Made by a program: the position numbers and the translations under genes
Assembly: GCF_003334305.1 (NCBI RefSeq)
Contig: NZ_QOWS01000090.1
Source of the DNA: Escherichia coli
Lineage (GTDB): Bacteria > Pseudomonadota > Gammaproteobacteria > Enterobacterales > Enterobacteriaceae
Direction: 5' to 3' (one strand)
DNA: 200 nucleotides
Shown: positions 1 to 200 of the stretch, piece by piece
How the letters are laid out: each line of letters begins with the position of its first letter
Position numbering within the stretch: position 1 is the stretch's first letter
Notes under the pieces: model-generated
The model's input: only the letters and a program-made list of their open reading frames with translations
Database searches by the model: none
What the model was told of the DNA's origin: nothing

Positions 1-68
1 GTGTATTTCCCGTTAGCCAGGTCATACGCGGCCTTAACGGCTTTTGGCGTTGCCGCCTGTGACTCGGA
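1..68. repeat. Copy A of a perfect direct repeat (68 bp visible, cut by the window start); part of a 132-bp in-frame tandem unit
   Basis: Seen in sequence: base-by-base comparison shows + 1-68 is identical to + 133-200 (68/68). The offset is 132 bp = 44 codons, so the repeat preserves the minus-strand reading frame. Identity reaches the window edge, so the true extent is unknown. Confidence 0.95.
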
Positions 69-200
69 AGTGCTGTTAGTCGCACTGCTGAGCTGAACTA
101 TCCCTTTCTGTGCTGTCGTTGCATCCTGTGCGGTGTATTTCCCGTTAGCCAGGTCATACGCGGCCTTAACGGCTTTTGGCGTTGCCGCCTGTGACTCGGA
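1..200 (-). CDS. stf: Internal fragment (partial at both ends) of a phage side tail fibre protein gene, lambdoid Stf-like, made of tandem 44-aa tail-fibre repeat units
   Basis: Seen in sequence: minus-strand frame with codons at + 198-200, 195-197 ... 3-5 is open for all 66 codons. The other two minus-strand frames have stops (TAG = revcomp of + 98-100; TAA = revcomp of + 166-168). All three plus-strand frames have stops (TGA 94-96; TAG 14-16, 77-79, 146-148; TGA 60-62, 192-194). The translation contains GIVQLSSATNSTS (+ 66-104) and ATPKAVKAAYD (+ 21-53 and 153-185). Established knowledge, from memory: these resemble the conserved phage tail fibre repeat of lambda Stf and E. coli prophage Stf proteins (Pfam Phage_fiber_2, accession not verified here). 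Composition is rich in Ala/Thr/Ser/Gln/Lys, typical of a fibrous shaft. The symbol is given at family level only; the specific paralogue (for example stfR, stfE, stfQ or lambda stf) cannot be assigned from 200 bp. No in-frame ATG or stop is present, so gene boundaries are outside the window. Confidence 0.8.
133..200. repeat. Copy B of a perfect direct repeat (68 bp visible, cut by the window end); part of a 132-bp in-frame tandem unit
   Basis: Seen in sequence: identical to + 1-68. It encodes the same peptide, SESQAATPKAVKAAYDLANGKYT, as copy A on the minus strand. Identity reaches the window end, so the repeat may continue beyond position 200. Confidence 0.95.

Follow-up and report, generated by a model that had tools for sequence, protein, structure and literature searches.

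How do two segments of one coding sequence come to be identical to the last nucleotide? The window analysed here is a 200-nt stretch of Escherichia coli DNA in which positions 1-68 and 133-200 are 100% identical, with a start-to-start offset of 132 nt. Given about 132 possible offsets, each with a probability of 4^-68, an exact match of 68 nt is not the product of chance. Because 132 nt corresponds to 44 codons, the repeat is in frame. The initial annotation had described this arrangement as a perfect 132-bp repeat without synonymous divergence inside a tail-fibre gene, and had considered as its source a very recent duplication, ongoing homogenisation by recombination or gene conversion, or an error of assembly. 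The 68-nt identity, the 132-nt period and the frame were all reproduced when recomputed. The window spans 1.5 units, and within it only 68 of the 132 unit positions can be compared.

The coding strand of the window is the minus strand. Reverse-complement frame 1 is open across 66 of 66 codons, giving the peptide SESQAATPKAVKAAYDLANGKYTAQDATTAQKGIVQLSSATNSTSESQAATPKAVKAAYDLANGKY, and there are stops in all three plus frames and in both other minus frames. A plus-strand ORF at positions 1-96 (31 aa, GTG start) was judged spurious, as it lies antisense to this strongly supported CDS.

In E. coli IAI1 the window has a 100% match at NC_011741.1 1653192-1653391, and sequence at least 99% identical to it is present in 257 complete-genome records, IAI1 and SE11 among them. 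In every record listed for this match the CDS is annotated 'prophage tail fiber N-terminal domain-containing protein'. The IAI1 gene is stf (4567-7527 on the IAI1 locus sequence, L001), which encodes the 986-aa protein WP_024190505.1 and lies in the gene order gpJ - lom - stf - tfaQ - pinQ - ydfK at the end of a ~47-kb Qin-like lambdoid prophage (integrase to pinQ) in which integrase, lysis, head and tail genes remain. The peptide of the window matches the 42-position PF03406 HMM twice, with E-values of 3e-21 (model positions 1-39) and 9e-10 (model positions 18-42), and over the whole IAI1 Stf protein the following domains are found by Pfam:

aa 1-134: PF08400 prophage tail fibre N-terminal domain, E 1.3e-71
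aa 462-502, 506-546 and 550-590: three copies of PF03406, 'phage tail fibre repeat', each over model positions 1-41, E 3e-20 to 1e-19
aa 761-808: Collar domain
near the C-terminus: weak matches to PF03335, short fibre repeat

The PF03406 units are placed between a long Ala/Ser-rich shaft and the C-terminal receptor-binding part of the protein. PHROGs matches are to tail-fibre families and agree with Pfam. The tail-fibre identity put forward in the initial annotation is borne out by the database annotation, by the J-lom-stf-tfa-pin synteny and by the combination of PF08400 with three PF03406 units. The stf gene of this Qin-like prophage has three PF03406 units of 44 codons in tandem, and the window covers the place where the first two meet; its features are as follows (window coordinates unless marked L001):

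1-200, minus strand: internal segment of stf, codons 479-544 of the 986-codon CDS, with codon starts at 200, 197 and so on; sole open frame, 100% match to NC_011741.1 1653192-1653391 within WP_024190505.1
108-200, minus strand: PF03406 unit 1 of 3, unit nt 40-132, codons 14-44 (SESQAATPKAVKAAYDLANGKYTAQDATTAQ), placed from Pfam hits and unit starts
1-107, minus strand: PF03406 unit 2 of 3, unit nt 1-107 (KGIVQLSSATNSTSESQAATPKAVKAAYDLANGKY), placed from Pfam hits and unit starts
133-200, no strand assigned: copy A of the exact 68-nt repeat, inside unit 1
1-68, no strand assigned: copy B of the exact 68-nt repeat, inside unit 2
124-200, minus strand: unit-1 copy of an 86-nt perfect-identity (putative conversion) tract, L001 5992-6077, running 9 nt past the window end; offset-132 comparison
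1-77, minus strand: unit-2 copy of the 86-nt tract, L001 6124-6209, beginning 9 nt before the window start; offset-132 comparison
78-123, minus strand: stretch between the tract copies that holds all six synonymous unit-1/unit-2 differences, from the marker tables
105, 96 and 78, minus strand: unit-2 nt 3, 12 and 30, sites of unit-1/unit-2 difference
123, 120 and 108, minus strand: unit-1 nt 117, 120 and 132, sites of unit-1/unit-2 difference

Other parts of the protein are also repetitive. A family of Ala/Ser-rich direct repeats, six in number and 45 nt long, lies in the shaft upstream of the window (L001 5134-5724). From one start to the next the distances are 63, 84, 63, 105 and 231 nt, each divisible by 21 nt (7 codons). 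This periodicity fits a heptad-based coiled coil, like the 'PCoil' region of PMC3368898. Towards the C-terminus (L001 7030-7500, aa about 820-960), in the region of the weak PF03335 matches, there are repeated His-x-His motifs (SHTHS, AHTHS, NHSHR, NHSHS, AHAHT, AHTHS and SHGHT). Elsewhere in the prophage the gene for minor tail protein L is frameshifted (L018 10937-11636), and several genes of the early region are pseudogenes. This prophage, otherwise nearly complete, may thus be defective and its intact stf a reservoir for recombination, and with minor tail protein L frameshifted the IAI1 fibre may never be assembled.

Comparison of the whole IAI1 gene with itself, as the initial annotation had proposed, supplies both the number of units and the identity between them. 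The array has three units only, starting at L001 5962, 6094 and 6226, and totals 396 bp. The peptides encoded by units 1 and 2 are the same; at the DNA level there are six differences in 132 nt, every one synonymous (unit nt 3, 12, 30, 117, 120 and 132), and the exact identity between them extends over 86 nt. The perfect 132-bp repeat of the initial annotation is therefore an effect of the window edges: no synonymous divergence was seen because all six differences fall in the central positions 69-132, which have no partner within the window. The terminal unit is far more divergent: 54-56 of its 132 nt are not shared with the first two units, the changes affecting 21 codons synonymously and 15 non-synonymously, and its last third runs on into the distal domain. 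Tandem Repeats Finder reports the array as 2.3 copies with 92% matches.

The near-identity of units 1 and 2 in IAI1 does not reflect the age of the duplication. In the stf alleles of O157 644-PT8, SCU-108 and B7A, which have the same flanks, unit 1 and unit 2 are different at about 26 of 132 nt. In these O157-type alleles the differences amount to 18 synonymous and 4 non-synonymous codons, with a Nei-Gojobori dS of 1.43 and a dN/dS of about 0.04; the corresponding pS between units 1 and 2 of IAI1 is 0.19, and that between internal and terminal units is about 0.9. Phage P2 gpH has an internal and a terminal unit paired at the same 44-aa spacing as in Stf, and its first unit has 81% DNA identity to IAI1 unit 1. 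The unit duplication must be old, since synonymous sites are saturated in the unconverted alleles and P2 gpH has the same pair. As judged from these sequence comparisons, then, the duplication is ancient and the protein is under strong purifying selection, and the suggestion that the unit originated in a very recent duplication fails on the dS of about 1.4 between units 1 and 2 of unconverted alleles.

What has been homogenised in IAI1 can be read from the 24 sites that discriminate the unit-1 type from the old unit-2 type. Along these sites IAI1 unit 2 reads 2, 2, then 1 at nineteen successive sites, then 2, 2, 2. The unit thus has ends of unit-2 type and a core of unit-1 type (nt 13-116), and the probability that the block would be contiguous by chance is 1.4e-4. 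At the background divergence, an identical run of 86 nt would be expected with a probability of about 6e-9. Of the six sites at which IAI1 unit 2 differs from unit 1, five have the base seen in the unconverted, old-type unit 2 of O157-type alleles. At the remaining site, nt 30, IAI1 unit 2 has T, which matches unit 1 of O157, SCU-108, R1 and mEp460 but not unit 1 of IAI1 itself. On these markers the mosaic bears the signature of gene conversion, or of an equivalent pair of unequal crossovers, over a tract of about 94-104 nt; gene conversion and two sequential unequal crossovers would leave the same pattern and are not distinguishable here. Homogenisation by recombination or gene conversion, one of the routes named in the initial annotation, fits this mosaic well, and that it is ongoing can be inferred from the polymorphism described below.

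A further departure from the old unit-2 type is seen in E. coli B7A, where unit 2 (L012 633-764) lacks two of the old unit-2 markers (T18 and A23) and keeps the rest. Ancestral polymorphism could account for this, as could a second conversion event from unit 1 over a very short patch.

The number of units in the array is itself polymorphic. When a 701-nt query across the array is used, some matches are shorter or longer than the query by exactly 132 bp. A flank-only query made from the two unique flanks gave 1,250 genomes with a place covering at least 80% of it, and spans were counted in an even sample, not a census, of 21 rows that match both flanks. The span is 896 bp (3 units) in 17 of the 21, 1028 bp (4 units) in two, 763 bp (2 units) in one and 631 bp (1 unit) in one. 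The same flanks therefore enclose one, two, three or four units in exact 132-bp steps, and the comparison across strains that the initial annotation had called for does reveal unit-number polymorphism. At the same time, the predominance of the 3-unit state in the sample (17 of 21 genomes) argues against very fast switching of repeat number.

Base-by-base reading of the array was carried out for 12 alleles, and the alleles with altered unit number carry chimeric units at their junctions. IAI1 and OkiPb01697 (L002, 2 units) have identical Tfa and Pin proteins, and their arrays are exactly one 132-bp unit apart in length; the internal unit left in OkiPb01697 is of unit-1 type save at nt 132, which is of unit-2 type, placing the crossover in nt 121-131. 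In the other 2-unit allele, that of NDM_12_14482 (L010), the internal unit is of unit-1 type through nt 116 and of unit-2 type from nt 117. The junction, in nt 31-116, differs from that of OkiPb01697 and falls in the stretch where an IAI1-like parent has its perfect tract. The extra unit of the 4-unit allele (L003; SCU-108, N66 and AH21G053 encode the same protein) is of terminal type at nt 1-27 and of unit-2 type from nt 47. In an O157-type parent with three units, one unequal crossover in which the terminal unit paired with unit 2 would yield exactly this product. Finally, the single unit of the 17-07187 allele (L011) is of unit-1 type to nt 21 and of terminal type from nt 27. Chimeric units with contiguous marker blocks are thus present as unit 2 of IAI1, unit 3 of L003 and unit 1 of each of L002, L010 and L011, and at least five separate recombination events are therefore represented in a dozen alleles. 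The idea that unequal crossing-over would change the number of units without breaking the frame is upheld, the junction units being chimeric as it predicts.

A loss of another kind is seen in strain 23CRST047 (NZ_AP045820.1, L004 about 2663-2760). Here 275 bp, a length not divisible by 3, are deleted from the array, so that unit 1 runs out of frame into the end of the terminal unit, in contrast to the in-frame 132-bp changes elsewhere. The annotation gives the gene as a pseudogene, frameshifted and truncated at its N-terminus, and it lies in a degraded prophage.

Several other accounts of the repeat have to be weighed against these data. Had a 2-unit gene recently copied one whole 132-bp unit, with too little time since for the copies to diverge, units 1 and 2 would be expected to resemble one another as they do (95% identity and no amino-acid change), and 2-unit alleles with the same flanks exist. 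A fresh copy predicts 0 differences, however, against the six synonymous differences observed at a pS of 0.19, and these are not scattered but clustered at both ends of the unit, with five of them in the old O157-type unit-2 state and the intervening block contiguous to the degree given above. Moreover, the near-isogenic 2-unit allele of OkiPb01697 has a unit-1/unit-2 hybrid and so looks derived from a 3-unit allele rather than ancestral to one. We consider a fresh origin of the unit very unlikely, and in the form of a simple recent duplication it is rejected on the marker mosaic. A more tentative matter, and one that concerns only a sub-variant of conversion, is whether the unit-2 core of IAI1 came from the stf gene of another co-resident prophage and not from its own unit 1. 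Genomes have up to 7-8 stf-matching places, and the T at nt 30 is the state of unit 1 in O157, SCU-108, R1 and mEp460; phage lambda is known to exchange stf DNA with Rac and Qin (PMC3945230). Against this, no unit 1 among the sampled alleles has T30 but lacks T50, so that no exact donor was found, and a single C-to-T change after conversion accounts for the data equally well. Import from elsewhere in the genome is possible, though less likely than not.

Two accounts remain. If the second 68-nt copy had arisen from mis-resolution of the repeat during assembly, one might expect the many database proteins from draft assemblies that are labelled 'partial' and end in the repeat region. But the same 200 nt is present at 99% identity or more in 257 independently assembled complete-genome records, the array is only 396 bp long with a perfect tract of 86 bp and diagnostic SNPs on its flanks, and the copy-number variants come in exact 132-bp steps with coherent chimeric junctions. 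Ordinary sequencing reads are long enough to span an 86-bp tract. The assembly error raised in the initial annotation is excluded on these grounds, its probability being negligible. It is scarcely more probable that the tract is conserved as a DNA or RNA element, such as a Pin crossover site or a structured RNA. The gene for the serine recombinase PinQ does lie just downstream of tfa, and some tail-fibre exchanges have been ascribed to invertases (discussion in PMC3945230). Yet O157-type alleles change 19 nt within the same tract while keeping the protein, which argues that the DNA itself is unconstrained. A search for a gix/cix/hix-like core (AAACCNNGGTTT, 1 mismatch allowed) found none in stf or in the window and one hit in 12.2 kb, in gene J, which is at chance level; no suitable inverted repeats of the kind that bound invertible segments were found between stf and pinQ. 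With neither a gix-like core nor suitable inverted repeats, a Pin-invertase crossover site or invertible segment was rejected, as was a structured RNA, for which an Rfam scan of the window gave one sub-threshold match (E = 0.53, 12 bits versus a gathering score of 100).

As to pinQ itself (L001 8200-8790), the gene follows directly after tfaQ, and neither a gix-like core nor inverted repeats were found in L001 4567-9400, nor any alternative segment for the fibre or tfa. The Pin-type invertase thus appears to be an orphan at the IAI1 locus.

We therefore return to recombination between the units. That a conversion patch, together with gain and loss of units by misaligned recombination in a known PF03406 array, is the explanation of the repeat seems to us highly probable. 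In outline, the core of unit 2 would have been overwritten by some 94-104 nt of unit-1-type sequence, via non-allelic homologous recombination or two successive unequal crossovers, and one later or imported base change would then have left the 86 nt of exact identity. Misaligned recombination between units would add or remove whole 132-bp units in frame, which would explain why E. coli stf alleles with identical flanks have 1 to 4 units. The partners in the exchange could be units of a single gene or of stf paralogues in different co-resident prophages. RecA and/or phage recombinases of the Red/RecET type are the probable enzymes, and the direction of each event is likewise inferred. Recombination between lambda and the stf/tfa regions of Rac or Qin occurs at ~2e-6, via Red-beta or RecA (De Paepe et al. 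2014, PMC3945230), and the longest perfect stretches in these exchanges are 49-115 bp (PMC3945230). Because stretches of that length served in the lambda exchanges, the 86-nt perfect tract should be a sufficient substrate for recombination. A Chi site acting as a recombination hotspot for the array was considered and rejected: a search gave none in the stf gene, the only Chi of the 12.2-kb locus being at 11953.

Each unit would, on the sequence, add a fixed module to the trimeric fibre, and unit number might affect fibre length or host range, as the initial annotation suggested. AlphaFold2 models of the three-unit segment (25-row alignment, mean pLDDT 46.7) and of a linked pseudo-trimer of two units (pLDDT 27.0) were too poor for a fold search. 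A short helix over TPKAVKAAYDLA in each unit is all that recurs in them, and we attach no importance to it. It has some appeal to regard the number of units as a selected 'length dial' that sets how far the side tail fibre reaches, or how flexible it is, to suit hosts with O-antigen or capsule of different thickness. Stretches made perfectly identical by conversion, the 86-nt tract being one, would then ease the recurrent in-frame gain and loss of 44-aa units, and conversion tracts would raise the local rate of further unit changes. The junction of one 2-unit allele (L010) lies inside the 86-nt tract region, in line with this proposal. We nevertheless think selection of this kind improbable.

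These findings have a bearing on how such genes are read from sequence databases and manipulated. An observation of zero synonymous divergence in a 200-nt window should be treated with caution, as it can be an edge effect. Most of the unit-bearing database hits are labelled 'partial', many on contigs of about 1-2 kb, and this suggests that draft assemblies often break in or near the PF03406 repeat. The stf array is relevant to the annotation and assembly of prophage fibres because many draft contigs break at the repeat. Some partial PF03406 fragments (for example P0026, P0035 and P0042) have been named 'short-chain fatty acid transporter, partial' by NCBI, in what looks like an annotation error. 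The array is also relevant to the engineering of fibres of defined length. Beyond this it opens no new question: both the PF03406 module and the gene family are already known, the dynamics of the repeat are ordinary and no new kind of element is involved. It does provide a clean, small case of tail-fibre remodelling by homologous recombination at a conserved module.

PF03406 (Phage_fiber_2, Pf2) is known from lambda Stf, K-12 StfR, P2 gpH, the constant parts of P1/P7 and of Mu gpS, and the collagen-like fibres of Stx phages. Ghosh et al. 2012 list it in prophage fibres and state that lambda stf is where it was first recognised (PMC3368898). We find a PF03406-type unit in 349 phage records, which include P2-like phages, P1/P7 Sc, lambda and Stx phages, and a match to one unit in 1,493 representative proteins; among the best 150 of these hits the number of units ranges from 2 to 17. 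The only relatives with solved structures are those of Mu gpS (PDB 5YVQ, 9KI1 and 8JU3), which align with unit 3 (E 3e-9) and have one unit each. The viable phages mEp460, PhiR68_2 and SPF_0923 have two units and keep the J - lom - stf - tfa order. Among close relatives the number of units goes up to 12, and more elaborate arrays occur in two of the representative proteins (P0121 and P0122), where 11-12 near-identical PF03406 units alternate between 44- and 56-aa spacing, the longer linker being GKAPSSHTHPWNQITGVPTASLTA, to build a higher-order repeat of about 100 aa from the PF03406 module.

A close known system is that of the lambdoid Stf/StfR/StfQ fibres with their Tfa chaperone. Stf fibres of this kind are Tfa-dependent homotrimers on the virion that speed adsorption. 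They have the same make-up as the IAI1 protein (PF08400, an Ala/Ser-rich coiled-coil-like shaft, PF03406, Collar and weak PF03335), and the likeness extends to the J-lom-stf-tfa gene order and the Qin-type neighbourhood of pinQ, ydfK and ydfJ. A first-unit lysine is present at aa 466-468 in every full-length lambdoid allele and phage Stf examined. K-12 StfR departs from IAI1 Stf in its distal domain and in having only one unit. Matches to the 701-nt query show that DNA homology between IAI1-type alleles and those of the K-12 StfR/R1/mEp460 type ends within the terminal unit at about nt 87-92 (query positions 249 or 518; L001 about 6048 and 6317), which places the breakpoint at about codon 30 (AAYD/LANGK versus AYD/NAEKRLQKDQ, the slash marking the break). 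As homology stops inside the unit at one position, the PF03406 unit acts as a joint for alternative distal (receptor-binding) ends and is a breakpoint that recurs in mosaics of these with the conserved proximal part.

Set beside other systems of variation, the array differs mainly in scale and in mechanism. Contingency (phase-variable) loci show high-frequency reversible switching; with three units in 17 of 21 sampled genomes there is no sign of such a frequency at stf. In Gin/Cin/Pin switching of G segments, inverted-repeat crossover sites bracket alternative C-termini, whereas the stf locus is without these, and the annotation of the IAI1 locus has one tfa and no alternative Sv-type segment. 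Literature searches turned up no specific earlier account of variation in PF03406 unit number, or of conversion, in stf, which is no proof that none exists. The nearer analogy is with the concerted evolution of in-frame domain repeats, as in the repeats of bacterial surface proteins and the BACON domains of crAss-like phages (PMC6949934), with which the stf array shares unit gain and loss, chimeric junctions and local zero divergence. It differs from these in having few units (1-4 in this allele class) and in homogenisation that is patchy and not array-wide. Between the IAI1 allele and PF03406 arrays as already known there is no categorical difference: IAI1 simply has three units, one of which has, on its markers, been partly converted by its neighbour.
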